IMG/VR virus record: IMGVR_UViG_3300035498_001541
Direction: 5' to 3' (one strand)
DNA: 64,000 nt
Origin: an uncultured virus (IMG/VR IMGVR_UViG_3300035498_001541)
Lineage: Duplodnaviria > Heunggongvirae > Uroviricota > Caudoviricetes
Positions 885-38,904 of the stretch are shown one piece after another (position 1 is the stretch's first letter; each line of letters opens with the position of its first letter). A program made the position numbers and the translations under genes. The notes under the pieces were generated by a model. It ran no database searches. It was not told the origin of the DNA and saw only the letters and a program-made list of their open reading frames with translations.

Positions 885-3800
885 CTAATTAAAGTTAATT
901 GCTACCAACATTACTAGCGTGCACATCAACATAATGGCACAAACCCTAGCTAATGGAGGATCATCGTCAAGTGAATAAATACCAAAGGTTAAAAACTTTA
1001 TTAAATCAAAACCACGTTGGGCTGATCTATTAGGTCCGGCTGCTAAAGCTTCTAGCAGAATCCTTAAACCTGCATGGTGAATCGCTAAGTATGCAATCCA
1101 GCTCATCACCACTAAGTAAGCAGCAATACACGTTATCACCATCAAGAACAAACTCTTAAAGTCACCCGCAAGAGCTTTCTGATAGTTTCTAACAAATTTA
1201 TTCTTTGCATTAGTAAAAGCAATAGACGGATTATACCTTGAACTGCTCACACTGATATCTGCGTACTGATCATCCTCATAGCTCAAACTTTCTGTATAGA
1301 ATGATGGTAAATCATCCCCTGTTCCGTAATTTCCAGAAGCAGTCGTACTAGTAAGCGTGTAGATTGTCTTCTCTGAATTGATGGGACGAACCTTCAGCTT
1401 ACCATCCAGTTTCAGCCTAATCGTCGTCATTGCATACCTACCAACTTCCGTTCCGGAAACTTTCTGCTTTGACTTCTTTTTCTTGTACCCGTATGCTTTG
1501 TTGTTCTCAGTATAAATCAATCCATACTTTCTGGTATTCTTCGTATTTCGTAGCGGTCCAACCTGTATACCGCTACTTGAGCCTTTCTTTCCTTTGTCCT
1601 TAATATAATTTGTGAAAGGATAGGCTCGACCATCGCACAGAACCACTAAATCCTTGAACGTGCTCTTTACAACAGACTTAAATCCTTTCTCATCCTTTGC
1701 TTTGTTAGTCCATTTTGCAGCATAGTTCCTAAGACCTTTTCTTGCTCCAATACTTCTAACTGCAACAGATGTAAGCCATTTGTTGCTGGAATCATCCTGC
1801 TTAGAATCACTATCAACAAAGAAACGAATATCGCCAATAGTAATCATATCGCCGGCATTCAACTCACTGAGATTTGTTGTCTGTACATAGTTAGCAATAA
1901 TAGACTCCTGCAAAGACTTCGTAATACTGTATGGATAATAGTTTCCGAAGCAAATAGCAGAAGACTTCTTGTGATGTGACAGCATACAGTCATTATCAGT
2001 TGTTGTACCACTTGATGCACCGGTCGTAGTGCTGTCCTCTGTGTAAACCGTCCATTCATCAACAGACAAATAGAAAACAGGAACACCATAAATTGTCTTC
2101 TTGTCATCAGACGTAGAACTACCAATAGCATTCACACGAAGAGAGCTATCTGGAGCAGACATATTCTGCAACTCTTCTCTTGTTGCCAATTTATTCTTAT
2201 CAGTATTTTTCTTAGAGTATACAGTGTTACTATGCTCCTTATTAGTCTTAGCTCTCAGCTTCAAACCAAAGAAATTCAAAGCTTCGTATAAAGTATTACG
2301 ATTGGTAGGCTTCTTGTTCACAATTTTATTTCTTGCACTAGTATCGTAGTCGTAGATTACAGTATTCTTTCCAACACAGCTAAGATTTCTTAGAGTAAAG
2401 CCATACAGTGTATCCTGATTGCTAAAGTGAAACGCGTAGTTATAGTCAAAATGGTATGGATGAGTCTTTGTCCCCAAGTACTCCTGTGCCCATGCATCCC
2501 AAACATCGCTGTACCCGTAATCAATCTTACTGGTAGTCAGCTGTTTATTCTTGTATGGTACAAACTTTGGATATACAGCTGTACCATCCCCACCTGACCA
2601 CAGCAACTTACCACCATTGTACAGTTCACTCGTTGTGTCTCTTACAATAGGTTTATCATATGGAACAAAAAGCAAATATGTTTGCTCAACAGTCTTCTTT
2701 TTCTTCTTAGTACTAATAGTCTTTGTCCCAACATACAACATCTTGTGATTTGTACCATTAGCATTATAGGTCACAGTAGTAGACCCAGCATTCAAACTAG
2801 CCTGTGAGGTAGTTCTCGTCTTCATCTTAATAAGACTAACTTTGCCTTTGGAATTTAGATTGTATACAACTCTCGTATCAGAGTCTAAATCCCTGTAAAC
2901 TACACCTGAAGCTGTTCTGAAATAGTGCTGGTCAACACTGTTTCCTGCCCAACTTGCATAGAACGTACCATCACCATTGGACTTATCTTTTCCATAGCAG
3001 AAACTAACCGTTCTGTAATCAGTAACCATACTCTGCAAAATTGAAGCTTCTTCTTCTGTTAAATCCATATCTGCAAAAGCCTCAGTCGGACTGAAGAATT
3101 TCTGATACCATGTCTTGATATCATCACCAAAGTACGCTGCCAACAAACTCTCATTGGAACTTGTACCATTGGAATCCCATGTCTGTGCTTTAAGTGGGTC
3201 TGACTTACGATTAAACATTGTGTTAATCCACTTAATATGTGAAGAACTACAACTGCTTGGCATCAGAATACTAATAGACGGAACTAAATACCCAGTGTTC
3301 ACATAGCAAACACCAGTGGTCCCGTAGACATAGTTACACAGCATATTACTTGCCATATAATTGCTATCCCACCAGTTCTCCAAAATCTTACTATTGGTAG
3401 GTCTTGTATACAACTCGGTCTGCAGAGTATTATCTGAATCACCAGTCGTAATGGCATCATACAAATCTGACACGCTCTCAAAATCCTCAACAGCAGGTAT
3501 TGCAAACTTCCAATCTATCACTAAGGTCAGTGTCTTTGTCTTTCCACCTAAAGAGCACTTGAAATCCTTTACAATTGTATTGATACCCTCTGTCACTGAA
3601 TTCACATTGTACATGTACAGAGTTTGTCCCTTACTATAAGTAGAGTCTTCTTCCTCTGACTTACCATCATCTGTACTAACAAGGTCTCCGTTAGCCAACT
3701 TAGCAAACTTCTTTGTCAGAGTGAAATTAGTTACGACTGCTTTACCAAAGTTAGCATCGTATTCAGACCTTACAACTGCTTTGTAATCCGCAACGGTGTC

Positions 3801-6260
3801 AGAGTTAGTAACAATTGCTCCTGTACCCAACTTCTGCTGAAAACTATCCTCTAAAATAGACTGAATAATCTTCATGTTGTAATACACTTCTCCGGACTCA
3901 TCAGTGTCTGTCATCAAGAACTCATCCTTGGTGAGAATTACAGTGTTACCAACTAAAGCGTATCCACTATCCGGCAAAATCACTGCCTGTGCCCCTGTCA
4001 CAGTATTCACAAGTACTTTGTCCTCAATCACTGAAATGTTACTCCATGTCTGCTTCATGGAACTCTGTGATACCATTGTGTATGTCGGGTCAGCTGACCC
4101 TGCTTTCTTTACCTTTGTCACAGCTGTAAGCTTTTTCGTATTAGCATCCACTGGGCACTTAAGATTCTTTTCAACTTTCTTTAAAGCTCCCGCGGCAGAA
4201 CCTGCCTTTACACTAAATACTACTTTGTAGCAAGGAACAGATGAACCATTAAACTTCGTATTTGTCACTTTAATACTCTTGATATCTGAAGGCTTATCTC
4301 CGCCATTCACAATATCAGAAAGCTTAGTAGTTCCGTATTTCCATGCTATACTCTTTGCTAAACGCTTTGTTACCAGATACGATGATGTATCAGCAGCTAA
4401 AGCTATCGGCACATCTATTGCCTGCTTGCTAAAGCTTGCTAAGCTCATCAGACTAAGCTCACCAATACTCACCTGTGCAACAGTTGTAACACTATCACTA
4501 CTTCCGCTCTTCTCTACGCTACCTTCATCCTGCGTAAATCCAGCAGCAACAGAGTATACAGCTAAATCATTAGCTCCGTACCCATTACTCTGCCAGAAGC
4601 TCTCGCCATCCGTCAGAGTAATCTTACTGAAATCATACCGGGCATCCTCATTAGCAACTCTGTAAAGAAGCTGATAAAGCTTTGCATAAGTTACTCTACT
4701 ATCAAGGTCGGAGTATTGGTCTCCGTCCTCAAAGCTCAAAATACCTTTTGAAATCAGAAAGCTCAAAGTCTTCTGTTGCTTTTCTGTGTAGGCTGACAAG
4801 TAGGTAATCCCGTATTTGTAAGTAATGATATCAGCTTCTGTATCAGTAATATCATCCTCTGAAATCCTGAGAACATCCTCAATATATTCTAAAGCTTCAC
4901 CATACGTAATAGACTCTGAATTAAAATACTTTGGATTCCTTGCTGTAATAGTGCCGCCCTTTGTGTACTTAATACTCTGTCCTAAAGCCTGGCTAACATT
5001 AGAATCGCAAAGACCACTCTCATTCCACCAAACTGGAGTAGTTCCCTTGGACAGCTTATTTATTGCTGAAGTGAAAGCCCTACCTGGACTGTCAGTTTCT
5101 CCAAACAAATTACCAGAATCTTCGTTATCACTGCGGAACTCATTCTTGTAAATGATTCCCTTATCTAACAGTGCTTTAAAGTACAGCTCGTATACATTGT
5201 TGCTTACATAGTAGTAATAGTCACCACTAGTAAAATCAGCATTATCTTTTCGCTTTGTTGTATCCCAGTAATCTCTTACAACCTTGTGACCATCAGTAGT
5301 CGTATAATACTTATTCAACTTGGTTATCAGCTTACCATCTTCCCACCAAGTACCGGTTGATTCACTGTACGTATTAGCATTTCTCACTGCAGTCTTGTTA
5401 AACACAATAGGTCTTGACTGAATAGAACCCCAAACAGACTTGTACAGCAACATCAGCAAATCAGATTTCCTAACCTTATCAGAATCAGCAACCACCATAT
5501 TATCATAGTGCATTTCCATAAGCTCTTTGAATTCTTCCATAGAACTCTCAAGCTCATCATGATAATTCTCTGAACTAGTCTTTCCAAGCCTGTAGTCTAA
5601 ATCTGCTGTTATCTCTTTGGTCTCTTCCTCTATCTCACTAAGCTGGTCATCAGTAAGCATCTTAGCTTCTTTCATCAGAGTAATAAGACCACCAGAACCA
5701 GTATCGCTCAAAACTGCATCTACATAATTCTCAAAAGCATTCTCGACTTTGGAAATCTTAGGGCTATCTGTATCAACGCTGTTCAAGCACTTGTTGTACT
5801 TTGTTGTAAACATCTTGTTCCAGCGAAGTTTTACATCCTCGTATCTGGTTGCACTCCACATACCGGTACTACTATCGTATGTCACAACCTCTTTTCTTGA
5901 AAGAATGTTATTGTTAATCAAATAAGACTTAGCAACCGCAACATCGGAGAGCTCACTCTTCTCGCTATCCTCATTTGTGTCTTGATAGCTATTTGTTCCA
6001 TTCACTAAATCTCTTGATGTACTTGTGATAACATACTTGTCAGACTCATCAGCTTCAATCTTACTCAAATAGCTGTATTGCATTAAACTGAGAATATCCT
6101 GCTGACTCTTCTCCGACAGTTTATAATCAATAGCAGTTACAGCATCGTTGATAGAGTGTGCTGCTGAAGTCGTATATCCATAAGTTCCTGCACTAACGCT
6201 TGCAGAATTCTGTAAACCCAGCATTAAAAGTAACGAACCTACTATCAAAGCTTTCTTCAA
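885..6260 (-). CDS. Very large secreted, C-terminally membrane-anchored surface protein with degenerate SLH-like motifs (~1791 aa)
   Basis: Probable TTG start at 6260 after AGGGGGTG (track uses GTG 6269). Signal peptide MKKALIVGSLLLMLGLQNSASVSA. SLH-like segments LISKGILSF...VTYAKLYQLLYRV, LLDKGII, ITYGEALEYI. Two hydrophobic segments at the C-terminus. Confidence 0.8.
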   Translation of the reverse strand: MKKALIVGSLLLMLGLQNSASVSAGTYGYTTSAAHSINDAVTAIDYKLSEKSQQDILSLMQYSYLSKIEADESDKYVITSTSRDLVNGTNSYQDTNEDSEKSELSDVAVAKSYLINNNILSRKEVVTYDSSTGMWSATRYEDVKLRWNKMFTTKYNKCLNSVDTDSPKISKVENAFENYVDAVLSDTGSGGLITLMKEAKMLTDDQLSEIEEETKEITADLDYRLGKTSSENYHDELESSMEEFKELMEMHYDNMVVADSDKVRKSDLLMLLYKSVWGSIQSRPIVFNKTAVRNANTYSESTGTWWEDGKLITKLNKYYTTTDGHKVVRDYWDTTKRKDNADFTSGDYYYYVSNNVYELYFKALLDKGIIYKNEFRSDNEDSGNLFGETDSPGRAFTSAINKLSKGTTPVWWNESGLCDSNVSQALGQSIKYTKGGTITARNPKYFNSESITYGEALEYIEDVLRISEDDITDTEADIITYKYGITYLSAYTEKQQKTLSFLISKGILSFEDGDQYSDLDSRVTYAKLYQLLYRVANEDARYDFSKITLTDGESFWQSNGYGANDLAVYSVAAGFTQDEGSVEKSGSSDSVTTVAQVSIGELSLMSLASFSKQAIDVPIALAADTSSYLVTKRLAKSIAWKYGTTKLSDIVNGGDKPSDIKSIKVTNTKFNGSSVPCYKVVFSVKAGSAAGALKKVEKNLKCPVDANTKKLTAVTKVKKAGSADPTYTMVSQSSMKQTWSNISVIEDKVLVNTVTGAQAVILPDSGYALVGNTVILTKDEFLMTDTDESGEVYYNMKIIQSILEDSFQQKLGTGAIVTNSDTVADYKAVVRSEYDANFGKAVVTNFTLTKKFAKLANGDLVSTDDGKSEEEDSTYSKGQTLYMYNVNSVTEGINTIVKDFKCSLGGKTKTLTLVIDWKFAIPAVEDFESVSDLYDAITTGDSDNTLQTELYTRPTNSKILENWWDSNYMASNMLCNYVYGTTGVCYVNTGYLVPSISILMPSSCSSSHIKWINTMFNRKSDPLKAQTWDSNGTSSNESLLAAYFGDDIKTWYQKFFSPTEAFADMDLTEEEASILQSMVTDYRTVSFCYGKDKSNGDGTFYASWAGNSVDQHYFRTASGVVYRDLDSDTRVVYNLNSKGKVSLIKMKTRTTSQASLNAGSTTVTYNANGTNHKMLYVGTKTISTKKKKKTVEQTYLLFVPYDKPIVRDTTSELYNGGKLLWSGGDGTAVYPKFVPYKNKQLTTSKIDYGYSDVWDAWAQEYLGTKTHPYHFDYNYAFHFSNQDTLYGFTLRNLSCVGKNTVIYDYDTSARNKIVNKKPTNRNTLYEALNFFGLKLRAKTNKEHSNTVYSKKNTDKNKLATREELQNMSAPDSSLRVNAIGSSTSDDKKTIYGVPVFYLSVDEWTVYTEDSTTTGASSGTTTDNDCMLSHHKKSSAICFGNYYPYSITKSLQESIIANYVQTTNLSELNAGDMITIGDIRFFVDSDSKQDDSSNKWLTSVAVRSIGARKGLRNYAAKWTNKAKDEKGFKSVVKSTFKDLVVLCDGRAYPFTNYIKDKGKKGSSSGIQVGPLRNTKNTRKYGLIYTENNKAYGYKKKKSKQKVSGTEVGRYAMTTIRLKLDGKLKVRPINSEKTIYTLTSTTASGNYGTGDDLPSFYTESLSYEDDQYADISVSSSRYNPSIAFTNAKNKFVRNYQKALAGDFKSLFLMVITCIAAYLVVMSWIAYLAIHHAGLRILLEALAAGPNRSAQRGFDLIKFLTFGIYSLDDDPPLARVCAIMLMCTLVMLVAINFN

Positions 6261-6265
6261 AATAG

Positions 6266-6703
6266 TCACCCCCTAACAACTTTCTTGGAGACACGAATTA
6301 GAAATGGCATATCTTTAAAAGCCTTTCGTACATCTGTGTTCTCTGGAACCAACTCTATTGAGTAAGGTAAAAAGTCTTTGTGTTTAAGTACCCTTTTTAA
6401 GGAATACTTGTATGAAGCATCAACTGAAATAACAACGCTCTTACACACCTCGTCCTTACCACTCATAGAAGTATTCCGGATAAGCTCTTTGTAAATCTGT
6501 GCAAGAAGAAGGTCTTTCAATTTCTCATCCCTCTGCATCAAACGAATATTATCCTCTTCCAAGCGTCTATTAAGACCTGTCTTGTAGAAATCAGTGTTAT
6601 GCCACATAGTGAGAAAGCCAGCCTGTATCTTGCCTAAAGGTTTGAGCTTTCTCAAATTCACTGATGCTTCAACGTCTAATTCTCTTCGTATTTTTACTCT
6701 CAT
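6266..6703 (-). CDS. Hypothetical protein (145 aa)
   Basis: ORF coupled to both neighbours; no motif recognised. Confidence 0.75.
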   Translation of the reverse strand: MRVKIRRELDVEASVNLRKLKPLGKIQAGFLTMWHNTDFYKTGLNRRLEEDNIRLMQRDEKLKDLLLAQIYKELIRNTSMSGKDEVCKSVVISVDASYKYSLKRVLKHKDFLPYSIELVPENTDVRKAFKDMPFLIRVSKKVVRG

Positions 6704-6705
6704 AC

Positions 6706-7914
6706 TTAATTAAACTGGTCTAATGATTTCGTTGACAAAGGCTTAAGTTTTCCGCGATAATCGCTCTGTTCAAAAGACGTAGCCTCCATCACTGCTTTTC
6801 TTGCTTCCACTTTTTCTTTTGCTGCTGTACTAGTATTCATAGTTACAACCTGACTCAATGTCTTTCCCTGTAAGACACTACGCAACTTAATAACAGCAAG
6901 CTTCACATCAGACTCAGTGCTATCCTTTCTCAGACCTTCAATGATCTGTATTATTTTTTGTAGTTCAACACTACTAATAAGGTTCTGTATTTCTCTAGCT
7001 TCCGATGCAGTGAAGTCGCACTTCACACCACCATCAATCAGAAAAGCTGCATCAACACAGAAATCCCTAAGTGACCTCACAAAAACATCTGTTGTCACTT
7101 TATCAATACAATCTTCCAACAGCTCTATCACAGTAGAAAAGCTGGAAAATTTCATTGCATTAAACAATGAGATAAACTCTCCGGTTCCAATCTCCTGCAA
7201 ATAGTCTCGCATCTCTTCAACACTGACATAGTTCTCCGAGGCAAAGTCTATAAGCTTCTCAATATCTCTTGGTATTCCTTTACTGTTCTTTACAATCATA
7301 GAAACAATTTCACCAGAAACAGTAACGTGCTTCTCGCTTGCAATCTTCTTGGCTAAGATTGTCGATTCCTTCTTGTTAAGACGGTTGAAAGTAAAAGGAA
7401 TTGCCCTGCTCCTCAAATCATTTGGGATATCATGAACTGCAGTTGTGCACATAATAATATAAACACCTTTGGGCATCTTATCTATCTCAGCAAGAAAGGC
7501 AGTAAATCCGCCCCTAATATTCTTGATAGCATGTGCTTCCTCAAAAATATACACCTGTTTACCATTGCCACTCTGCAAAACGAAAACATCCTTAATCAGA
7601 CTTTCAATATCCTCGAACTTACTTGTCTTTCCGAGATTCACTACCTTAACGTATGGTGAAACACCAACTTCTTCCAGTGCAAGCTTATTGGCTTTGCAGG
7701 CTTCGCACTCCAAACAGGGCTCCCCATCTACAGGATTCTGGCACGTCAGAGTCATTGCAGCAATTCCTGCACACGTACTCTTTCCAGTACCCAATACACC
7801 ACCGAAAATCGTGAACTTTTTAAACGTTTCATAGGTAAGTGATCTTTTCAGCAAATTGATAGTTGATGCATTACCTACGAGTGAACTAAACTTATATTTT
7901 CTCATAAAAGGCAT
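6706..7914 (-). CDS. dnaX: DNA polymerase III clamp-loader gamma/tau-like AAA+ ATPase
   Basis: RKYK-F-SLVG N-terminus, Walker A GVLGTGKST, Zn module CQNPVDGEPCLECEAC, Walker B YIFEEAH, sensor LRSRA, G-PRD motif. Confidence 0.9.
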   Translation of the reverse strand: MPFMRKYKFSSLVGNASTINLLKRSLTYETFKKFTIFGGVLGTGKSTCAGIAAMTLTCQNPVDGEPCLECEACKANKLALEEVGVSPYVKVVNLGKTSKFEDIESLIKDVFVLQSGNGKQVYIFEEAHAIKNIRGGFTAFLAEIDKMPKGVYIIMCTTAVHDIPNDLRSRAIPFTFNRLNKKESTILAKKIASEKHVTVSGEIVSMIVKNSKGIPRDIEKLIDFASENYVSVEEMRDYLQEIGTGEFISLFNAMKFSSFSTVIELLEDCIDKVTTDVFVRSLRDFCVDAAFLIDGGVKCDFTASEAREIQNLISSVELQKIIQIIEGLRKDSTESDVKLAVIKLRSVLQGKTLSQVVTMNTSTAAKEKVEARKAVMEATSFEQSDYRGKLKPLSTKSLDQFN

Positions 7915-7957: not shown

Positions 7958-8049
7958 CTCAAAATTAGGATAGAGCCCTTTTCAAGCTCTACCCCACGTA
8001 ATATTTTTAACAACCAGTCTACGCTGGTCTATCACCGGTCAATGGTCAA

Positions 8050-9711
8050 TTAAGCAAGCTCAATCTCCATAGCCAGGTCGGACAGAGACTTGCTTCCGCC
8101 CTCAACAGAAACCTCTGAAGACAGAATAGACTTAAGGTAATCTGCTGCAGATACAACCTCTTTCTTCTTCTTGGAAGCTCTGTTGGATTTTGTAAATTTC
8201 TGAACCTCTTTGATGAAGTCGCTCGGGTCCATCTTAGTAGCCTGAATCAGATGAGCATATGTCTCCTGAGGACCGCCTGCCTCTCCAAGAGTAGTATACT
8301 CAAACGGATAGGTCTTCTTGCTGCCGTCTTTGGAAAGTTTCTCTCTGCGGACCGGAATGCGTACATCAGTAATCACATCATCATCACTTGAGCTGTCATA
8401 GCGTGTAACATTGATAGGAGTACCGTCATTAAACCATGTGGTCTCGAAGCTTCCGTCCGGTTTCTTACGAACCTCGGTCTTAGCCTCATCGCAAAGAGCA
8501 TCATACTTGGAATCATCCTTGCACAGTGCCTGTGCATGAAGGTTCAGCATCTTAACATCATCTGCACTGAGAGAGCCGGTAGAAACAGTCTTGTAAGTTC
8601 TGAGCGGGAAGTAGTTAGTCTCAGTAAGGAGAGACTTTCTGTGCTCCTTGTTGCCCAAAACGAAAGATGCAGCGAGGAAATCGCTGGTAGCTCCAGTAGC
8701 CTTATCTTTCTTGTGTCTCATCGTGTACTTCAGCTCAATGTCAGAAGCCGTAGCACCAACAATGCTCTCGTCCTCTTTAATACCGCCGTTGAAGTTTGAA
8801 GAAATGTAAGCATAAGCCTGCTCCTTAGAAAGCAGATGATAACGAAGGGTTGTATCATTGCTTACATCAACGTTTCCGTCACCCTGTACCTGTGACAGAG
8901 AAATATCGGAACCTGCCGGAACAGAAAGAGCAACACCAACAATAGCGCCGGGCTTAGCACTTCTGAATTTCAGGAACTTCTTTGTCTCTGACAATGACAT
9001 AGGCGGCTGCTTTGTGCCATCACTGTATTTCTGCTTATCCTCTTCGGATGCGTCTTTTCTTAAAACTCTCTTGCCGTCTGCACCTTTTACCGGAACATTT
9101 ACGGTAGCCAAACGAATTGCTGAATCCTGACGGGTAACGAAGAAAAGTAAACGACCGAGCTTCTTATTCTGAATGTAAGCACGAGAACGATCCGTTAAAG
9201 CAATATTCTGAGTTTTCTGACGAATGTCACGAACCTCTTTCTCCTTTGCTGTAAGGTCTTTGCCGTTAACTGTTGCCGGTGCGGGAGTAGCTGCTCCTGC
9301 ATTAAGAATGTCTGAACTGAATGAGCTCATGTCTGATGATGGATTAATTCCTGCCATACTATTATCCTCCTTAACATTTTTTGTTGTTTTGGGCTTTACC
9401 CCAATTCTCTTAGTAGTTACCAAACTCCCAGTTTCCGAGAGCTTCATAAAGGAAAATCCCTTGTTCTTTTTCCAATAGCCGATAATGGTATCATTACCAG
9501 AGTAAACTGCACTTGCCTCTTTAGCGGGCTTTCTCTTTGTCGTGGCTATCCATTTGTAATCATCGAGCACAACGACCTTCTCATTATTGCTTTGTTCCTC
9601 CTCGGTCAACTGTCTAAAAGAACTAATGGTAATCAAATCATTATTGGGAACCCTTACAACATCCAAGCTGCTGGGCACAGCACCAATACGTCTTAAATCT
9701 TCCAATTCCAT
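8050..9711 (-). CDS. Hypothetical lysine-rich protein (553 aa) with a strong internal in-frame start at 9357
   Basis: SD AGAAAGGA before ATG 9711; second SD AAGGAGG before in-frame ATG 9357; no family recognised. Confidence 0.85.
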   Translation of the reverse strand: MELEDLRRIGAVPSSLDVVRVPNNDLITISSFRQLTEEEQSNNEKVVVLDDYKWIATTKRKPAKEASAVYSGNDTIIGYWKKNKGFSFMKLSETGSLVTTKRIGVKPKTTKNVKEDNSMAGINPSSDMSSFSSDILNAGAATPAPATVNGKDLTAKEKEVRDIRQKTQNIALTDRSRAYIQNKKLGRLLFFVTRQDSAIRLATVNVPVKGADGKRVLRKDASEEDKQKYSDGTKQPPMSLSETKKFLKFRSAKPGAIVGVALSVPAGSDISLSQVQGDGNVDVSNDTTLRYHLLSKEQAYAYISSNFNGGIKEDESIVGATASDIELKYTMRHKKDKATGATSDFLAASFVLGNKEHRKSLLTETNYFPLRTYKTVSTGSLSADDVKMLNLHAQALCKDDSKYDALCDEAKTEVRKKPDGSFETTWFNDGTPINVTRYDSSSDDDVITDVRIPVRREKLSKDGSKKTYPFEYTTLGEAGGPQETYAHLIQATKMDPSDFIKEVQKFTKSNRASKKKKEVVSAADYLKSILSSEVSVEGGSKSLSDLAMEIELA

Positions 9712-9798
9712 ACCATCATTTCCTTTCTACTGATTTATAATTAAGAGCCCTTGGAAACCAGGCTTCTTAACCAAAGCAAGAACCCGAAAATTCATTCG

Positions 9799-10407
9799 CT
9801 AAACAGCAAAATTCTCCAGGTCACGTTTTAAAATTGAGATTGCCTGACTGACAACCTCTTCTGCACTGATAGTCCCCTCTGTGATTACATTCACATCGTA
9901 AGACACATTATCACTTGCGTCCTCCTCAAGCTTGTTCACTACGAAGTTCTTGACAACGCCATGCCGGCTGTTAATAATCACCAAGCTATCAGTATTCACG
10001 CCATTCTTCTTCAAGAAAGCTTCATTATCTTCCTTAGTATGCTTGCCACTGTCAAACCTGAAATAAACTGTGACATTCATTGGCGTGAAAACATGTAACA
10101 CCTCTGTAACATCGTAACTAATTACCCCAATCTCACCATTGGAAAATGCAGAAGCATTTAAAACATCCCTGCACAAATTCTTCCAAGTAACCAGCTTGTT
10201 ACCACCTGTGTAGCTGAAAGCCATAGACGAGATATTACCGATAAACTCAGTCATATCCTCCTCACACTTCTCGCTAATGTTAATCACATTGGAAGACTCT
10301 CCAACAGCAAAAGCAATAGGTCGTAAAGAATTCAACCTAGTCAAAGCTATCTGCCGAATAGAGTTTATTACCCCATCTGCAGTGTACCTATTCAACTTTA
10401 CTATCAT
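9799..10407 (-). CDS. rpoA: RNA polymerase alpha-subunit N-terminal-domain homolog (no alpha-CTD), 202 aa
   Basis: Colinear with the RpoA NTD as recalled: LNRYTADGVINSIRQIALTRL ([21 protein letters not shown]), EEDMTEFIGNI (VEDVTTIILHI), FRFDSGKHTKEDN (AQRGRGYTPADAN), VITEGTISAEEVVSQAISILKRDLENF ([27 protein letters not shown]). ATG 10407 follows AGGAGG. Confidence 0.8.
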   Translation of the reverse strand: MIVKLNRYTADGVINSIRQIALTRLNSLRPIAFAVGESSNVINISEKCEEDMTEFIGNISSMAFSYTGGNKLVTWKNLCRDVLNASAFSNGEIGVISYDVTEVLHVFTPMNVTVYFRFDSGKHTKEDNEAFLKKNGVNTDSLVIINSRHGVVKNFVVNKLEEDASDNVSYDVNVITEGTISAEEVVSQAISILKRDLENFAV

Positions 10408-10999
10408 AGTTACCTCCTGCAATCACTACTTTCTGCAAGCTGTCTGCTTTTCCTTCTTTCATTAAAACAGCAGCCGTAGTGTAGCTATTTATCTTCTTTT
10501 CAATATCTGCAGCACTGTCGCATTCGTTGAAAATATCAGCGTACTCGAAGGACTCCATCTGAGCAAAAATATCTTCTAGCCCTTCTCCGCCATTAGTCAC
10601 ACACTCAACCATGCTGGAGATTTTTGACTTAACCTCATCAAAATCATAAACACTTTCCGGAATCCCAAGGTCAACATCTATTAGGATACGTAGCTGAATA
10701 TCATTCTCGTTATTCACTAGGAACTTCGCCATATCTAAATAGAAATATCTCAGTGTCTTAATAGCGTATGAATAATACTTTCTATTTCCACTGAGATAGC
10801 GTAAAGCATTCACATATTCTGATAGGGGTCGATCATACAAATCAGAGGACACATTAAGATGCACCTGTGATTTCACGTAATTAGAATACCTAATCACTAA
10901 GCCATTCTCAGTAATAGAATACTCAGTACATAATCGGGTATTCTTCTCAGCTGCTGAAATAGCAACCAAGTGATCCACTCTCTCGTATCCTAAATCCAT
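10388..10999 (-). CDS. Hypothetical protein (203 aa)
   Basis: ORF in the operon; no motif recognised. Confidence 0.75.
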   Translation of the reverse strand: MDLGYERVDHLVAISAAEKNTRLCTEYSITENGLVIRYSNYVKSQVHLNVSSDLYDRPLSEYVNALRYLSGNRKYYSYAIKTLRYFYLDMAKFLVNNENDIQLRILIDVDLGIPESVYDFDEVKSKISSMVECVTNGGEGLEDIFAQMESFEYADIFNECDSAADIEKKINSYTTAAVLMKEGKADSLQKVVIAGGNYDSKVE

Positions 11000-11001
11000 T
11001 T

Positions 11002-12036
11002 TTAGAACTCCCTTATGAAACTGTCTAAATCTAATGTTTTTGTTGCTACTCGTGACTGATGCTGCAAATTCCTATCAGCTGCAAACTCCCCACTCGACAG
11101 CTTAGACGACTTCTCTCGCAGCATCTGTTTATCTTCTTCGGAAACAAAAGCCCTCTTAGCCCCAAGACTATTCAAGCTATCCTGGTCTCCGTAAAGTGTA
11201 AGAAATTTGTAAAACTTCTCTTTGTTCACATCATCAAAAAATACAGGCTTAATCTCGACACCTTCTGGCTTCTCTGCCGGATACACAAGCTTCACATTGT
11301 CGTATAGCACTTGAAACTCTTCCGGTGTAAAAAGACCACTGGTGTTGGCAAAAACTAAAGGTGTTTTCCAGAAAGAAGTTATCCAGTAATTATTACCATC
11401 TTCTCTCTGTGAAAGCCACTTAACAAATTCATAGTAAATCTGTTTTCCTTTCATACCATTAGAGAGTTTGATTCCCTTAATCTTGTCAGACGAGCATCCA
11501 CAGAAAGCCTTGTATGCACTGATGGTGTTAAACTTAATAGTCTCACCAATCTCAACTGACTCCACAAAATTTCCCGGATGAATACACCCAACACCCGGAA
11601 CAATGGACTTAAAGCGAACCCCCGGCTGAATACTGTGACACAAGTCATAGTCATTTCCGACAATCACAATATCATCGTATTTACCAACGCAATCTCTCAC
11701 TGCCCAATCGACAATATCATCTGCTTCAAAACCATCATACTTCTCGCACCTAATACCACAGCCAAGCATCCCATCGTAAATAGTCTCAATCTGCCCAATT
11801 ACCTCAGGAGACCTCTGCCGACCAGACTTATAATCCGGATTCATATCTTTCCGAAACGTAGGACTGTCAAAACAGAGCACTACGCTATCTCTGCAACAAA
11901 ACCCAACACACAGCTGACGCATCAGATAGTGGATTCCACCAACAGGATAATTATAGTATCTCCTATCCTTGAAAAACTTGGAATGTGACCCTGTATGAAC
12001 TAAAGCCGAAACATCAATTATCAGCAAATTATTCAC
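11002..12036 (-). CDS. Stand-alone 5'-3' exonuclease / flap endonuclease (Pol I N-terminal, T5 D15-like)
   Basis: LLIID, CFDSPTFRKDMNPDYKSGR, GFEADDIV, GNDYDL and GCSSDKIKGI (H3TH) motifs. Confidence 0.92.
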   Translation of the reverse strand: MNNLLIIDVSALVHTGSHSKFFKDRRYYNYPVGGIHYLMRQLCVGFCCRDSVVLCFDSPTFRKDMNPDYKSGRQRSPEVIGQIETIYDGMLGCGIRCEKYDGFEADDIVDWAVRDCVGKYDDIVIVGNDYDLCHSIQPGVRFKSIVPGVGCIHPGNFVESVEIGETIKFNTISAYKAFCGCSSDKIKGIKLSNGMKGKQIYYEFVKWLSQREDGNNYWITSFWKTPLVFANTSGLFTPEEFQVLYDNVKLVYPAEKPEGVEIKPVFFDDVNKEKFYKFLTLYGDQDSLNSLGAKRAFVSEEDKQMLREKSSKLSSGEFAADRNLQHQSRVATKTLDLDSFIREF

Positions 12037-13288
12037 TTATCTTACCTCCAATAGGTATCAGTGTATCAAGCAAAGCATCAATATCGCTGAGGTTCTGCTT
12101 CAAAGCATTCACATCTTCATCAGACTTCGCAATACGAGAATCCCCCTCCAAAACAAAGTTCATCAGAGAATCATCAAACAACGCTAAGCTCTGGTCATTC
12201 ACACCAATAATACCAATATCCTTTAATTCAAATGCAACATCAGAAAGCCTACCCTTGCACCCAAGTTTCTTTAAGAAAAACTCGGACGTCACACTGCTAA
12301 TCTTGCTACGCAAGTCAACAAGCATCCTAAAACTTTCCTCTGTCAATTCATCCAAATCAAGTGTCCCATTGTCAAAGGCTGTAACAAAAAACTGCCGGAC
12401 ACTAGCACTGCAATCATCCAGAATACCAAGTGCTTTATCAGCAGTAAACTTTTTCACTTTCACAACCTTACCGGAAGAAACAAACTCATTCATACACTGT
12501 TTGTACTTCTCAGTCTCTTCTCTACACTCATTAATCACAGCGTAGAGCACATTGGGATTGCGTTTATCCTTTACACTATCAAAAAGATTATAGACAATAT
12601 AAGTAATGCTGCTTGGCTTCCTCATAATAAGGTCAAAGAACGAAATACCGAAAACCATCTTACCGCCTGTTGCCCTTTCGGCACAATGCTTAATACAGTC
12701 TTCAATAAAATCTTGTCTGTCCGCAAAGTATTGCAAAGCATTTTTCTGATTCCCGCTCAAATGAATACTCTTTTCATCTGTCATGATAGAATCAGGAACA
12801 CACTTTGTCATACCGTAAGCTTCAGCCCATTCTGCCATAGTATCAACACTGGAATCTGTCAATCCTTTGTAAATCTTTTTCACTACATCAGAAATCTCAC
12901 CAATGCTAAACTCGCTTGAGCTAAATTCGCTCATCACTTTCTCAGACAAATCTTTGGAAACCTCTTTCCACTTTCCATTCTTTGAATTCCTAACCACAAG
13001 AGCCAGCACTTCATTACGCACTTCCTGTGCAAGCTGTACTACCAAGGTCTCTGGTTCTCCATCAATACTTCCATGTACTACCATACAGAAAGGTGTTAAG
13101 TCTTCACTTACCTTTCTTACCTTAGGCAACTCATACTGACAAACACTGCTAACCTTCTTTAGATAGATAAACTCTTTTCTAACATCGCTAGAGGCTGTAG
13201 ACAAATACTGTTGTAGTAACTCCTTGTCATCCTCAAGCAGCATAATAATCATAGGAGCAGGAAGCCCCCAAAAACTACCTATTCGCAT
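12029..13288 (-). CDS. Hypothetical protein (419 aa)
   Basis: Long ORF with GGAGG SD; no motif recognised. Confidence 0.8.
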   Translation of the reverse strand: MRIGSFWGLPAPMIIMLLEDDKELLQQYLSTASSDVRKEFIYLKKVSSVCQYELPKVRKVSEDLTPFCMVVHGSIDGEPETLVVQLAQEVRNEVLALVVRNSKNGKWKEVSKDLSEKVMSEFSSSEFSIGEISDVVKKIYKGLTDSSVDTMAEWAEAYGMTKCVPDSIMTDEKSIHLSGNQKNALQYFADRQDFIEDCIKHCAERATGGKMVFGISFFDLIMRKPSSITYIVYNLFDSVKDKRNPNVLYAVINECREETEKYKQCMNEFVSSGKVVKVKKFTADKALGILDDCSASVRQFFVTAFDNGTLDLDELTEESFRMLVDLRSKISSVTSEFFLKKLGCKGRLSDVAFELKDIGIIGVNDQSLALFDDSLMNFVLEGDSRIAKSDEDVNALKQNLSDIDALLDTLIPIGGKISE

Positions 13289-13345
13289 ACTTTACCTCCA
13301 AACACTTAACTATACGCACACCGCATCAAAACATAGGTGTAGACT

Positions 13346-14617
13346 TTAAAGCAAGGACACAGTAAAATCACACAGAAATTTTGATTTTGAACTCTGCACA
13401 TCATCACTGCTGATTGCGTATTTTTTACTAACGCTCTTCAGAAATTTGGAAGCATCTTTCTTACTGCTAAAGCTTCCTGTCACCTCAACTGTTGAAGACT
13501 CCACAGTAAAGTTTACATCTTTTGGTGTGCCACACTTCACAATATCACTAATCACTTGATAGCTTGACAACTGAGTGTCTGTGCCCTCCACAATCTTGTA
13601 AGCCTCAACCTGCGATACATTTTCGTTGTACTGTGTGCTCAGACTATTATAAGAGAGCTGCTTGTTCACGAGAGCATTGTTAAGATAACGCTCCCCAATA
13701 AAAGAGCCCATAATCAGAATCAGCTCAACCAGAATCAGAAACATGGAGAGACCATTAGGAAGCCCAAACTTTTTCTTTTTCTTCTTTTGCTTCTCCTCAT
13801 CATTGCCAATCTTTTCTTTCTTTGGCTTAGGCTGCTTCTTTGGCTGTTGCTTTGGTTGCTGCTTCGGCTGTGGCTTTTTCTTAGGCTCAACTTTCTCCTC
13901 CGGAATACTTAAATCCTCGAAAGTTTCTACCTCCTGAGTAGGCATTACAGGAATAGACTCGGGCTCCACAACCTCATCATTGCTAAACTGAAGGTTTCGA
14001 ATATTTCCTAAGCTAAAAGCCTTGTCAGTCATAGCAAAGCCAAAAACAGTAAGCTCTATTAAAGCCTTTCTGTCTCCCATCAAAGCTTCTGCATTTGCAA
14101 AATAGGAAACCAGCTCATTGGAAATGTAAGAATTAAGATTTACAACATTGGAAATCTGATACCGGTTGCGCATAGCTGCAACTGTATTGTACAAATTATC
14201 CTGCGTACAAATCTCCACGCATGAATCATTACCATTGACAGCAATGATATTGAATTTGTTATCAATCTCCTCGATTGCAATAAGCGGACCACCAAGACTA
14301 GCATACAAACTTGCATACTCAATAACCTCATAGTCACCTATCTGAAGCACCTCAAGAAGATGCACAATTGCATCCCGGTCTGACTTACTCTCCACATAGT
14401 ACAATCCATTGATTCCAACGGAATTTGCTGTCTCCCTGCTCTGCACCAGTCCATGGTTAATAACAATAACTTCATCAATTGGTAAACCAGACATTTTTGC
14501 ATAGAGCTCATCAATAAAGTTATCTGTATAGTCAAAATCCTCCATACCTACAACATAGCGGTCTTTTGTAAACAGAGTCACCACATTGTCAGAGAGGTCA
14601 ATATAAAATCTATTCAA
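13346..14617 (-). CDS. Bitopic membrane protein, PilM/PilN-like fusion candidate
   Basis: TTG 14617 after AAGGAGG. Cytoplasmic N-domain, K/P/Q linker, one TM, coiled coil, then C-terminal VEVTGSFSSKKDASKFLKSV...FTVSLL resembling PilN. Lies next to a PilB-like ATPase. Confidence 0.55.
   Translation of the reverse strand: MNRFYIDLSDNVVTLFTKDRYVVGMEDFDYTDNFIDELYAKMSGLPIDEVIVINHGLVQSRETANSVGINGLYYVESKSDRDAIVHLLEVLQIGDYEVIEYASLYASLGGPLIAIEEIDNKFNIIAVNGNDSCVEICTQDNLYNTVAAMRNRYQISNVVNLNSYISNELVSYFANAEALMGDRKALIELTVFGFAMTDKAFSLGNIRNLQFSNDEVVEPESIPVMPTQEVETFEDLSIPEEKVEPKKKPQPKQQPKQQPKKQPKPKKEKIGNDEEKQKKKKKKFGLPNGLSMFLILVELILIMGSFIGERYLNNALVNKQLSYNSLSTQYNENVSQVEAYKIVEGTDTQLSSYQVISDIVKCGTPKDVNFTVESSTVEVTGSFSSKKDASKFLKSVSKKYAISSDDVQSSKSKFLCDFTVSLL
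13825..13885 (-). repeat. Degenerate 12-bp tandem repeat encoding (PKQQ)n
   Basis: Protein KKKPQPKQQPKQQPKKQPKPKK. Confidence 0.7.
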
Positions 14618-15744: not shown

Positions 15745-17331
15745 CTACAAAATACTATCCAGATTGTATGGATTAAATACTTCTGAACGAACTGCTTCTG
15801 TAAGGGAATCCTCGAAAGAGTTCCTATTCTTAATCACAGTCTCTTTCAGCACTTTCTCCATCTGGTAAGGCTGTTCGCACTCAAGCAACTTATCAGTAAG
15901 TTCACTGTCAAACTCTAAAAACTCAACGTATGGTTGGTCTTTACCAGGTACATTGCCAGTATTCTTACACCTTTCACAGCCATGATTCACACTGACACTA
16001 ACCACACCACGTTTCTTCAGAAACTCAGCAATATTTCTATCAAGCGTATCTACAAGAACCTTGTCCTTACAATACGGGCAGGGAACTTGATACATCTTCT
16101 GATTAAAGACACCATTAATCTGTGAAATAATATTCTTGTATTCTTCCCCATAGTATTCTTTCAACTTGTAAGGCAGATGCCAAATTCTATCCACGTGCAT
16201 AGTAGTGATTACATACACAGAAGAATTCACCAAATCCTGTACAGCGAAAGCTACCTCCTTGTTAGGCAACTCGTTAATAAAAGCCACGTTAATATCCTGC
16301 TTCTTTGCTAAACGAACAGCCTCCAACAACTCCTCCGGTTCCCCACCATAGTCAATCTGTGTGAATGGCATAAGAACCTCAATAGGATACTCATAGCTCA
16401 CAATCTTGATTGGCTGCTTTGTCAACTCATTAGCAAGAGCAAAAGCAGTGGTGTTCTTACCGGTACGAATTGCACCTGTAATAAACACAATTCCAGAACG
16501 CTTCTTAATCATATCCCTTAAAGCACTCTGTACAGTCTGAGAAAATCCTAACCGGTCAATGGTAAAGTTAAACGTCTCCTTCTTCTGAATACGAATAACA
16601 CACTGCCAGCCATCCAGCACTTTATTTGCCGCGATACGCAACTCAACTGCATTATTACCCAATGGGTCATTTGACATAGCAGTTACACCAGCCGGTGTAA
16701 TCAAATCCAGACTGTTAGCATTTGTCTTGTTCTCAATCAATGAACTGATAATAGACCTGTTAAGCTCTGCATCCAACTCAAAGAGCTCCATCTCGTAAAG
16801 CATACCATTCACCCTGTATTTTACAGGATACCGAATCACACCAAGCATAGGATGCTCTACACAGAAATGTAAATCTGTAGCACCTAAAGACAGAGCCTCC
16901 AGAAGAATCCTCTTAAACAGAATAGTTCTGTTGAAAACTTCAAACTTCTTATCCGGATCTTCTAAACACTTGAAATTGTATGGTGTTACAGCAATAAACT
17001 TCACGTCGCATTTATCCATCTCCAACTCAATGGCATTCTTGTCCACATCATCAAAGAAGGAATAGTATACTGTACACTTTGTATTCTGCCGTACAACTTT
17101 CACAGAGTACCGCTTTTCAATCCTGTTTACATCCGGATCAAAATCTTGCTCCAAACTCTCTACTGATAGCACCGGGTCTTCACACACTACTTCCAAATTA
17201 GCTATGATTGATGCTCTCGGACAAAACTTATACATCTCAAGAATCATCAACTGTTCTTCTAATTCTGTGATAGCCTCGTCTGTGAAGATTCTTAGTACCT
17301 CAGGAGTCCTAATAAAATCTTCTATCCTCAA
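15745..17331 (-). CDS. Type II/IV secretion (PilB/GspE-family) ATPase, divergent
   Basis: GATDLHF, YRVNGML, Walker A GAIRTGKNTT, Asp-box SYEYPIE, KQDINVAFINE, His-box TTMH, Zn motif CPYC...GCERC. Confidence 0.88.
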   Translation of the reverse strand: MRIEDFIRTPEVLRIFTDEAITELEEQLMILEMYKFCPRASIIANLEVVCEDPVLSVESLEQDFDPDVNRIEKRYSVKVVRQNTKCTVYYSFFDDVDKNAIELEMDKCDVKFIAVTPYNFKCLEDPDKKFEVFNRTILFKRILLEALSLGATDLHFCVEHPMLGVIRYPVKYRVNGMLYEMELFELDAELNRSIISSLIENKTNANSLDLITPAGVTAMSNDPLGNNAVELRIAANKVLDGWQCVIRIQKKETFNFTIDRLGFSQTVQSALRDMIKKRSGIVFITGAIRTGKNTTAFALANELTKQPIKIVSYEYPIEVLMPFTQIDYGGEPEELLEAVRLAKKQDINVAFINELPNKEVAFAVQDLVNSSVYVITTMHVDRIWHLPYKLKEYYGEEYKNIISQINGVFNQKMYQVPCPYCKDKVLVDTLDRNIAEFLKKRGVVSVSVNHGCERCKNTGNVPGKDQPYVEFLEFDSELTDKLLECEQPYQMEKVLKETVIKNRNSFEDSLTEAVRSEVFNPYNLDSIL

Positions 17332-33939: not shown

Positions 33940-35706
33940 TTACGCTTGAAACTCTGGAATCTTCTTTACAGACTTAATGAACTCTTCCATGCTGGAGATT
34001 GGTGGTTCCGTTACTGACTCAAGACCATTAGCCTTGCAGTAGCAGCATACAGCGTATCTGCACAAAGACGAAACTTTTAAGAACTGTGTTCCAGACATCT
34101 TTACATAACTTAAGTATGTACCATTGGAAAAATCTTCGGTATCAACTAAGCTGTTGTAAATAATAATACCCCTGTACTCATCGTCAAACTTACAATCATG
34201 TATCATTTGCTGAATGGCGATACTTACTTCTTCTGGCACATTAGAAAACACAACTGTGCTATGTGCTAAATTCCTATCCTCATCATAGAAAGCCACAATT
34301 GTCTTGTCATACACAGCCATGCACGCAACATACCACTTTGCTACTTTCTTTGTTGGATAATACACAGAGTCAGAAAATGGTTCCGGTTCGACAACTCCAA
34401 TCTTTGACTTGTTCTGTCTAACTGAATCTTTAAACTTAGTCATCAGCTCTTCATCAGCAATGCCATAGTTATACCCCAGCTCAAATGACATTGCTAAAGG
34501 ACTCCAGTCATCCACAAAGATTGTGCTGAAATCCTCCAGAATCCAAATATCCTTTAGTACTCTCTTACTAATCTTAAAGACTGGCTCATCATGCCTTACA
34601 AGATAAATACTGATATCATCTTCTGTATACCCAAGTCTATAAAACCTATCAAGAATCTCATTTACAGTCCTAATAATCATCTCACTGGTACCGGTCTGTA
34701 TTGGAGCATTCAATGCTCTATTTACTGTATCCGTCTTTTTGTATTGAATTGGGCTTGACTCCTCATACCCAAAATAACTGGTCAAGGCAACAGGCAACCC
34801 TAAATCATGTGCGTCATTCAGACGATTGTAATACTCCACATACCGCGGACACATACTTAGGAAGTTTGAGAACATAGAAATAAATCCCTTATCCTCCTCA
34901 ATCACTGAGTTCCTTGTACCGTACATTACAGCAAGTGTATTCTTCTTATAAACTTGACGCTGCTCCAAGAACTTCTCCTTGTCAAACTTCTCACCAAGCT
35001 TATTTGAGATAATACGAGCAAGAGCTTCATACTTATCATCATACTTGTTCATGATTTCGTCATTCTCTTTGCTACGTAAAAACAAATTATATGCAATTCT
35101 GAAATCTGACTGCGCAAAATCACCCCAAGCCAGAAAATACCCGTCCTCCACACCAATACACTTTGAAATCTCTTTTGGTATCTGAGCAATAACATCATGA
35201 TTGGAATAATTAAACCTGAGATTCACTTGCTGACGAGCAGTGTACCCCAACTTAGCCAGCATCTTTCCATTCCTGTCAGCAATCTCAGGCGCCGGTGTAT
35301 TCTTAATCAATGAAGCAGCACGCTCACTCCTAGACTTCAAAGACTTATACCCAGTGTAGTATGCAAGAAACTCAGTAGCATACCCATTCTGCATCAGAGG
35401 TCCTAAAACCTTTTTCATATCCAGTGAAAGCGACTGTGTTTTCCTTGATGTAAAATAGTGATAAGGACAAAACTCGTAGTCAATCAGATATTTGATAATG
35501 CAATCTTTGGTAGTAATTCTTAATCTACCATGACTCTTCTGTATCATTAAGTCTGTGAACATAGACAGCATTGCACTAGACTTGCTGGACAACTCACGTT
35601 GATACATTCCCATTGCATCTTTATCGTACAAAATATACTGATTCCTATTTATCCTCTCAGCGTATTTCTCAACGTCAATAGTATCATTTTTACTATACTT
35701 TACCAT
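33940..35706 (-). CDS. Short family-A DNA polymerase (no exonuclease domains), atypical motifs A and B
   Basis: Motif A GDFAQSDFRI, motif B RQVYKKNTLAVMYG, RALNAPIQTG, motif C RHDEPVF; extra ~150-aa C-terminal domain. Confidence 0.88.
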   Translation of the reverse strand: MVKYSKNDTIDVEKYAERINRNQYILYDKDAMGMYQRELSSKSSAMLSMFTDLMIQKSHGRLRITTKDCIIKYLIDYEFCPYHYFTSRKTQSLSLDMKKVLGPLMQNGYATEFLAYYTGYKSLKSRSERAASLIKNTPAPEIADRNGKMLAKLGYTARQQVNLRFNYSNHDVIAQIPKEISKCIGVEDGYFLAWGDFAQSDFRIAYNLFLRSKENDEIMNKYDDKYEALARIISNKLGEKFDKEKFLEQRQVYKKNTLAVMYGTRNSVIEEDKGFISMFSNFLSMCPRYVEYYNRLNDAHDLGLPVALTSYFGYEESSPIQYKKTDTVNRALNAPIQTGTSEMIIRTVNEILDRFYRLGYTEDDISIYLVRHDEPVFKISKRVLKDIWILEDFSTIFVDDWSPLAMSFELGYNYGIADEELMTKFKDSVRQNKSKIGVVEPEPFSDSVYYPTKKVAKWYVACMAVYDKTIVAFYDEDRNLAHSTVVFSNVPEEVSIAIQQMIHDCKFDDEYRGIIIYNSLVDTEDFSNGTYLSYVKMSGTQFLKVSSLCRYAVCCYCKANGLESVTEPPISSMEEFIKSVKKIPEFQA

Positions 35707-38212: not shown

Positions 38213-38217
38213 TACAC

Positions 38218-38904
38218 TCACCTCCGAAATGCGTTCATAGGACGACTTTTCTCATCATACTTGATATTTTGAAACTCCCTAACATACTGATTGCAGAGGT
38301 CTCTCCACTCAACCAACTTCTCGAAAGGACTTGTCTCCTTTAAATACCTAATTGCGCTGTTGGGGTCGATTCTTCCCCACTCAGATAACGCCCGAATATT
38401 CGGTACATTACCTATGGAAGAAAAAGCGTAACCCATCTCATAAGCAAAGTTAATCTCAACCTGTTCCTCTGCCATACTAAATATCAAATCATTGACGACA
38501 GATGAATTATTAGTAGGAATCATGAAAAACTGATACATCTTTGCTACAAAGCTATCGCCTGGTACTAAATACATAGCGTCGCTAACCGCATGAACTACTT
38601 TATCCATACACTCACCAATTGGCAATGTAAGAGCTAACACGTAAAGCATAATTCGTGGGTCATCCGCAACAATGTTGATATCCTTAAGCAGACCGTTAAA
38701 CCAATTCTTGTGCCAACCTTCAAGAGTATAAATATTTCCGTATTTTACAGTATCGTAAAGACACGCAGTTGTACACATAAAGAATGCAGGTGAAGGTTCT
38801 TTCTGACCATTAAAGTCACCAAGGTATGACTCGTTAGGCATAGCACAATCCGGCACACCAAATCGCTCTGTTCTTATCATATCATCGAACTCTGGTATAA
38901 TCAT
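38218..38904 (-). CDS. Hypothetical protein (228 aa)
   Basis: AGGGGGTG SD; adjacent to the FtsK-like gene. Confidence 0.8.
   Translation of the reverse strand: MIIPEFDDMIRTERFGVPDCAMPNESYLGDFNGQKEPSPAFFMCTTACLYDTVKYGNIYTLEGWHKNWFNGLLKDINIVADDPRIMLYVLALTLPIGECMDKVVHAVSDAMYLVPGDSFVAKMYQFFMIPTNNSSVVNDLIFSMAEEQVEINFAYEMGYAFSSIGNVPNIRALSEWGRIDPNSAIRYLKETSPFEKLVEWRDLCNQYVREFQNIKYDEKSRPMNAFRR

Follow-up and report, generated by a model that had tools for sequence, protein, structure and literature searches.

A second-copy alpha subunit of RNA polymerase (RNAP) is known from Francisella (alpha1/alpha2), where it is chromosomal. The multisubunit RNAPs of jumbo phages of the phiKZ, AR9 and PBS2 type consist of beta and beta' in split form and are without alpha and omega (PMC7598289). 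Other phages disable the carboxy-terminal domain (CTD) of the host alpha subunit, T4 through ADP-ribosylation by Alt and ModA (PMC7824862) and phiKMV through its factor Rac (PMC7552054). In the accessible portions of two reviews (PMC7824862, PMC13282480) the only roles given to alpha are those of a target in the host and of a component of bacteria. The subject of this report is a gene in a 64,000-nt stretch of DNA (the window, always taken at its full length) from an uncultured virus, IMG/VR record IMGVR_UViG_3300035498_001541, which encodes a bacterial-type alpha subunit reduced to its amino-terminal, or assembly, domain (NTD). No published account was found of an alpha-NTD encoded by a phage or plasmid, nor of elements like those described here, in a literature search that may have missed subscription papers and recent preprints.

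A first-pass annotation of the window, made from its letters, had read this gene as an RpoA colinear with the NTD throughout, ending where the linker to the CTD would start and without rpsK, rpsD or rplQ as neighbours. The coordinates of this and the other features are collected in Table 1. The longest ORF listed at the locus (open reading frame, 9799..10422) begins with TTG and would give 207 aa. The start codon was placed at the ATG at 10407-10405, which together with the TAG stop at 9801-9799 gives 202 aa; it lies just downstream of the Shine-Dalgarno sequence listed in the table, and the N-termini of 19 relatives line up with the methionine that it encodes. The Pfam model PF01193 (RNA_pol_L, the Rpb3/Rpb11/alpha dimerisation domain) matched residues 13-196 with an E-value of 4.8e-5, at 23.4 bits and so just below the 24-bit cut-off, and the match is split by an inserted domain, the same as in cellular alpha. 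A search of PHROGs with the protein gave no useful match. A single-sequence phmmer search of the Protein Data Bank (PDB) gave 28 matches at E<=10, and 26 of them were RpoA chains; the matches were weak (E 0.3-1) and the alignment was colinear, residues 15-200 pairing with 41-231 of E. coli alpha. When a profile of the protein's family (alignment A1, described below) was used against solved structures, 58 matches were obtained at E<=1, 56 of them bacterial alpha chains and the other two Rpb11. The best E-value, 2.8e-15, was to alpha, with profile positions 6-201 aligned to chain residues 30-228 or 56-252. The protein stops at residue 202, where the alignment with the NTD ends and the alpha linker would start. 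One member of its protein cluster carries the label "DNA-directed RNA polymerase alpha subunit" from the JGI pipeline.

The predicted structure gives the same answer. AlphaFold2 run with alignment A1 produced a model with pLDDT 96.3 and pTM 0.90; a model from the single sequence was discarded (pLDDT 33.5). The comparison with RpoA by Foldseek that had been suggested as a check gave 4yln_A as top match, with an E-value of 4.6e-13 and a TM-score of 0.80, and among the matches listed every entry at ranks 1-49 holds bacterial RNAP or its alpha subunit. A VIA-align comparison of the model with 48,161 representative chains had 4noi_B as its best match (Z 18.4, rmsd 2.3, 195 of 202 residues aligned). 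Three bacterial alphas scored Z 18.4, 17.7 and 17.7, those of Campylobacter (18.4) and E. coli (17.7) among them, followed by tobacco plastid alpha (16.2), archaeal D (12.1-12.3), Rpb3-type subunits (about 11) and L/Rpb11 (about 8). Identity to cellular alphas in these structural alignments is 14-20%. The model of the insert domain, PF01000 (RNA_pol_A_bac), is matched by 0 of the 105 family members at E<=0.01, yet both the profile and the structural alignments span that region. The minus-strand frame at 9799-10407 is thus confirmed as a real gene for a bacterial-type alpha NTD that probably spans both domains, and the colinearity claimed from the letters holds, far beyond chance, in profile, Z-score and TM-score alike. 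Homodimerisation and binding of beta and beta' are presumed for the protein from what bacterial alpha does.

An exhaustive HMMER search with the window alpha found 113 representative clusters (50% identity) at E<=1e-3, 67 of them at E<=1e-10 and 13 at E<=1e-30. Alignment A1 consists of the window alpha and 104 of these representatives (105 sequences, all of 190-233 aa). The nine left out were six fragments (P0021, P0022, P0055, P0076, P0087 and P0109), P0111 (235 aa, matched in two stretches), P0074 (569 aa) and P0114 (a repetitive protein of 878 aa). Not one of the 105 matches the alpha-CTD model PF03118 or any other recurrent Pfam domain, so that the early end of the window protein, as first described, is a property of the whole family; P0074, which is a cellular alpha that came up in this search, does match PF03118 (E 6.3e-28). 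P0074 itself is unusual, having two stretches each of dimerisation and insert domains followed by one CTD, an apparent tandem duplication of the NTD. PF01193 is matched by 26 of the 105, with a best E-value of 8.9e-7. Positions R18, R29, P30, E50, D51, G121, N128, S147 and H149 are near-invariant, and from its conservation the short alpha is judged to be a family in its own right and not a decayed fragment. Residue 19 aligns with the second arginine of N-A-L-R-R in E. coli, which we take to be R45, needed for beta binding; it is glutamine in 67 of the 105, and arginine is outside the five commonest residues there. Such family-specific substitutions at positions conserved in cellular alpha would fit co-evolution with a divergent partner. 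Contigs carrying short-alpha clusters reach 523,076, 415,529 and 374,029 bp.

A candidate for a partner of that kind is encoded by relatives. Pattern scans with A2, a narrower alignment of closer alpha relatives, found four metagenome loci (L001-L004, of which L002 is on a 211-kb contig of 211281 bp) and a fifth (L005) on the 103-kb contig C12 of a Lachnospiraceae bacterium assembly (G001). Between 1.5 and 70.7 kb the window and C12 are collinear, with 44 protein pairs in the same order, and the window therefore shows its element only in part. A second contig of the assembly, C37 (45 kb), has an ORF of 2751 aa with eight Pfam domains, Rpb2_45, Rpb2_6, Rpb2_7 and Rpb1_1 to Rpb1_5, ie a fused beta-beta' subunit. 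C37 and C12 have the same GC content (0.37 each) and skews of similar magnitude (0.25 and 0.23). The correlation of their tetranucleotide profiles is 0.99, equal to that of one half of C12 with the other, compared to -0.1 to 0.3 with host pieces. The host's own rpoB and rpoC are on C11 (GC 0.54), and its rpoA, of full length, is on C52. C12 also encodes a GreA/GreB-like factor, Hsp70, a DnaB-like helicase and an SNF2 helicase; the counterpart of its GreA region in the window element falls beyond window position 1. Contig C60 of the same assembly, with its three sigma genes, differs in composition (GC 0.44) and was left outside the element. Besides the polymerase gene, C37 encodes a bifunctional penicillin-binding protein, a ligase, an ABC1 kinase, a BspA-type leucine-rich repeat protein, pairs of HEPN and nucleotidyltransferase proteins, tRNA-Met and tRNA-Pro.

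The G001 beta-beta' was used as a query in turn and gave 763 matches at E<=1e-3. Among the best 120 of these, limited to proteins over about 1500 aa (a filter of 1496 aa), most are about 2400-3200 aa (two are shorter, 1725 and 1880 aa), on contigs of up to 310 kb, and some of the clusters hold hundreds of members. NADFDGD is intact in the 2751-aa protein and is invariant, with many other catalytic-core residues, in 20 aligned members. The closest solved relatives are beta' chains of Firmicutes (E 2.9e-69). In IMG/VR only matches of 20-39% identity were found, and those in GenBank phages (24-30% identical) were set aside as looking like cellular rpoB/rpoC. The alpha profile matched none of five IMG/VR phage records that have distant fused beta-beta' genes. 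One beta-beta' cluster includes pairs of shorter products that share a contig, such as 853 and 1466 aa on a contig of 40,670 bp; they may represent forms that are split, interrupted or frameshifted.

Alpha and fused beta-beta' were tied to each other by the longest contig of their clusters. This contig has exactly the same size for alpha P0253 and beta-beta' P0167 (215521 bp), for P0254 and P0302 (99424 bp), for P0255 and P0301 (97525 bp), and for P0004 and P0323 (131978 bp). P0004 is 42% identical to the window alpha and the third-best of the 113 representatives. Four exact agreements in contig size are beyond chance, and it follows that alpha and fused beta-beta' share a contig in at least four assemblies.

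In our judgement the window alpha probably acts as assembly subunit in an alpha2-beta-beta' polymerase that its element encodes. Two copies would dimerise through domain 1, and the dimer would nucleate a fused beta-beta' encoded elsewhere on the element, to give the core enzyme. By analogy with the bacterial enzyme, alpha would bind beta-beta' and the complex would transcribe from element promoters, probably served by the element-encoded GreA-like factor. Because its alpha is without linker and CTD, such an enzyme could not use UP elements or activators that depend on the alpha-CTD. The first of two roles offered by the first-pass annotation was that of a part of an element-specific multisubunit RNAP; this is supported for the element family, through the G001 beta-beta' and GreA-like factor and the four shared contig sizes, and is inferred for the window's own element.

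Several observations weigh against this assignment. In G001, alpha and beta-beta' are on separate contigs, tied only by composition. The motif D-x-D-[GA]-D is absent from all six frames of the 64-kb window, and the only RNAP domains that Pfam recognises in the 52 window ORFs are those of alpha itself. The longest contig of the window alpha's own cluster (132703 bp) and that of L002 (211281 bp) are in no listed beta-beta' cluster, so that no catalytic subunit was seen for the immediate clade of the window, although its absence is not shown. Pfam matches to sigma region 2 and to omega are absent on C12 and C37, and a holoenzyme therefore cannot be described. Finally, the alpha gene is within a block of replication genes and not beside other genes of transcription. 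We infer that the window's element carries its beta-beta' gene beyond the 64 kb; for the clade as a whole it could be unlisted, in pieces under the 1496-aa filter, or absent. The search for rpoB, rpoC, sigma or a second alpha recommended with the first description therefore had a mixed outcome, giving fused beta-beta' genes in relatives, no other RNAP domain in the window and no sigma on C12 or C37. Three window ORFs of 1794, 1066 and 825 aa were considered as hidden polymerases and rejected, having no sequence match in the PDB, and the D-x-D-x-D sites of the window were rejected as polymerase sites, as the sequence around them has no polymerase context.

The second role proposed at the outset was that of a CTD-less alpha which reprograms the host enzyme. 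It would join host RNAP as a homo- or heterodimer, remove one or both alpha-CTDs, and move transcription from host promoters dependent on UP elements and activators to the genes of the element. E. coli alpha cut after the NTD still assembles into core enzyme, and the window protein consists of the whole assembly domain alone. The window has no beta or beta' gene to offer it instead. The family profile is closer to the rpoA NTDs of Clostridia hosts (E 1e-16 to 6e-20) than to E. coli alpha (about 1e-9), which fits an origin in the host lineage. A hijacker would be expected to retain the residues of the host interface, however, and the family is only 14-20% identical to cellular alphas and has invariant motifs of its own in place of residues conserved in them. 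In addition, relatives supply a putative cognate partner, a fused beta-beta' on the same contigs together with a Gre factor. We regard capture of the host enzyme as unlikely; it is possible especially soon after entry, and fits the evidence less well than an element-encoded polymerase.

The genes around alpha bear on a further alternative, in which the element uses an alpha-NTD fold as a dimeric scaffold for its replication machinery, with no part in transcription. As had been noted from the letters, the ribosomal-protein genes rpsK, rpsD and rplQ are missing here; the adjoining genes are those for a 5'-3' exonuclease, two proteins of unknown function and a clamp loader (Table 1). The order exonuclease, 203-aa protein, alpha, 553-aa protein, clamp loader is kept in 6 of 6 loci, and the two proteins flanking alpha have no known family; both points would be compatible with such a scaffold. 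Against this, fold and sequence match alpha over the full length, including residues typical of RNAP such as the E-D pair at 50-51, and we know of no precedent for the alpha-NTD fold outside RNA polymerases. The co-location with beta-beta' in relatives is explained more simply by a polymerase, and we consider a purely replicative role very improbable.

Table 1. Positions of the features described, in the window unless another contig is given
Feature	Location	Strand	Remarks
1794-aa ORF	885-6269	minus	Kept in L002 (1794 aa) and G001 C12 (1656 aa); no Pfam, PHROG or PDB match
Clamp loader (DNA pol III delta'-like AAA+)	6706..7914	minus	Pfam DNA_pol3_delta2 E 2.9e-15; PHROG clamp loader E 3.6e-25
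Terminator-like hairpin and T run	7966..7996	minus	After the 553-aa gene; from terminator scan
553-aa gene, function unknown	8050..9711	minus	3' of alpha; last in transcription unit
Alpha-NTD-only gene	9799..10407	minus	202 aa; dimerisation/assembly and putative insert domains; without linker or CTD
203-aa gene, function unknown	10388..10999	minus	5' of alpha; stop overlaps the alpha gene by 20 nt
Shine-Dalgarno sequence AGGAGG	10413..10418	minus	5 nt 5' of alpha ATG; strong ribosome-binding site, read from sequence
5'-3' exonuclease (FEN-like)	11002..12036	minus	Two genes 5' of alpha; Pfam 5_3_exonuc_N E 4.7e-16
Type II/IV secretion-type ATPase	15745-17331	minus	T2SSE E 6.8e-28
Family-A DNA polymerase-like genes (two)	33940-35706 and 61095-63986	minus	
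FtsK/SpoIIIE-like ATPase	36047-38221	minus	
Amidase_3	49228-50649	minus	
GreA/GreB-like factor	L021:8014-8478 (G001 C12)	plus	154 aa; GreA_GreB_N E 1.1e-10
Bifunctional penicillin-binding protein	L012:17741-19759 (G001 C37)	minus	Transglycosylase and transpeptidase

The overlap between the 203-aa gene and alpha suggests translational coupling of the two. The 203-aa protein has no match in Pfam or the PDB, its profile reaching only E 0.12 in the latter. It was considered as a sigma factor, and this was not supported, since hhalign gave a probability of 0.4% against three extracytoplasmic function (ECF) sigmas in addition to that poor profile E-value; the sole lead in that direction is an Atlas cluster (score 0.90) in which 16% of members have Sigma70_r2. 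Sigma-70-like promoters are not enriched in the window, with 32 observed and 35.4 expected. If the element does transcribe its genes autonomously, its promoters would be read by a factor other than a recognisable sigma or omega, for which the 203-aa protein coupled to alpha would be a candidate.

The 553-aa protein has no assignment in Pfam, the PDB or the Atlas. A second GC-rich hairpin with a T run lies in the same 135-nt spacer that follows its gene. Three animal-gut metatranscriptome runs, from three studies, carry contigs 99-100% identical to the window, mainly over this gene (8012-9754), and one RNA-library contig of 261 nt spans the alpha start (10240-10500). These matches are to assembled contigs, for which carry-over of DNA is possible. 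There were no RNA-library contigs over 6000-7334 and 10539-14000 in the runs, which is not informative on expression there. Within the 8-kb stretch it is the 553-aa gene, with two terminator-like hairpins after it, that is covered in each of the three gut RNA libraries, and its product may be a very highly expressed protein of the element.

All 52 of the long ORFs taken as genes in the window are on the minus strand; the GC content is 0.40 and the skew is steady at about -0.27. Most of the genes that can be recognised serve in DNA replication and repair: a family-A polymerase, the clamp loader, the FEN-like exonuclease, RecJ, a UvrD-type helicase, a Mre11/Rad50-like pair, a Toprim primase and a DnaQ-like exonuclease. 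Of the two family-A genes, one is a strong match (E 5.5e-32) and runs off the end of the window; the other is weak (E 4.8e-5, below the Pfam cut-off) and may be a divergent or inactivated paralogue. The T2SSE-type ATPase, the FtsK-like ATPase and Amidase_3, whose genes are interspersed with those for replication, could belong to an apparatus for DNA transfer, packaging or crossing of the cell wall. Pfam gave no match at E<=0.01 for 33 of the 52 ORFs. Capsid, portal and terminase families had no match in the window ORFs (Pfam, PHROG) or in 148 kb of the G001 relative, and tRNA genes are absent from the window's 64 kb and from the 103 kb of C12, with two in C37. That the contigs belong to a very reduced cell with this gene as its rpoA is barely credible: the relatives do encode a penicillin-binding protein, Hsp70, FtsK, GreA and a full replication set, and alpha-bearing contigs reach 523 kb, but so few tRNA genes, the lack of any ribosomal-protein gene in the Pfam matches of the 52 window ORFs and 72 ORFs of C12 and C37, the many ORFs without a family, the single coding strand, and a GC content of 0.37 for the element contigs compared to about 0.54 for the surrounding Lachnospiraceae assembly are all at odds with it.

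The distribution of the gene was also determined. In the genome sample searched, 1 of 401 genomes in the family of G001 carries a short alpha, namely G001; in its class 21 of 399 genomes were matched, and in 20 of the 21 the match is host rpoA, in frames of 318-363 aa. Used as a single query, the window alpha had no match in the viral, genome or metagenome contig collections; the A2 pattern had none in IMG/VR, alpha had none in GenBank phages or PLSDB plasmids, and megablast of 12 kb against GenBank phages gave no match. No virion genes were detected in the approximately 210 kb surveyed, and the elements may therefore be something other than ordinary phages or plasmids. A broader proposal is that they form a widespread group of extrachromosomal elements of gut Clostridia, 100-500 kb in size and distinct from ordinary phages and plasmids, with autonomous transcription based on a CTD-less alpha dimer, a fused beta-beta' and Gre. 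We advance this tentatively, as a possibility rather than a probability.

If an alpha2-beta-beta' enzyme of this kind is made, it would be a natural minimal core without alpha-CTD, and a compact bacterial-type polymerase for the study of assembly and of promoter use independent of the CTD. It would also be a case of a mobile genome capturing and streamlining the transcription machine of a host, and short alpha and fused beta-beta' would together be a marker pair for big elements of gut Firmicutes, a large group that is still uncharted. The drug sensitivity and regulation of such an enzyme could differ from those of the host RNAP, which bears on persistence of the element in gut bacteria.

Compared to known systems, the window alpha is closest to the NTD of bacterial RpoA (E. 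coli residues about 1-235, PF01193 and PF01000), with which it has the same two-domain fold (188-197 of 202 residues, Z 15-18) and presumably the role of a dimeric platform for beta and beta'. It differs in that its family is without linker and CTD, has no PF01000 match, has invariant motifs of its own and is 14-20% identical to cellular alphas, and in that the gene is on a mobile element, outside the rpsM-rpsK-rpsD-rpoA-rplQ cluster. Archaeal D and Rpb3/AC40 are assembly platforms which are naturally without an alpha-CTD and have a common core fold with the window protein (Z 10.8-12.3). They form heterodimers with L/Rpb11, however, and many have extra domains, whereas the window alpha is closer to bacterial and plastid alpha (Z 15-18). 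T4 Alt/ModA and phiKMV Rac would, if the host enzyme were captured, serve the same end of freeing transcription from control through the alpha-CTD; those are enzymes that modify host alpha, whereas the window protein is itself an alpha homologue.

Fusion of beta to beta' in one polypeptide, beta first, occurs in the cellular rpoBC of some bacteria, eg Helicobacter. The beta-beta' of the elements forms a divergent group apart from these, with about 25-28% identity to cellular rpoB/rpoC in tblastn, and is found on low-GC contigs of 100-300 kb. The jumbo-phage RNAPs are likewise beta/beta'-type polymerases from mobile genomes, and compared to them the relatives described here have one fused canonical beta-beta' (about 2400-2900 aa) and an alpha homologue in addition. 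PMC7598289 treats the absence of the alpha platform as a defining oddity of phage multisubunit RNAPs, whereas here a mobile element appears to carry both that platform and a canonical fused catalytic subunit.

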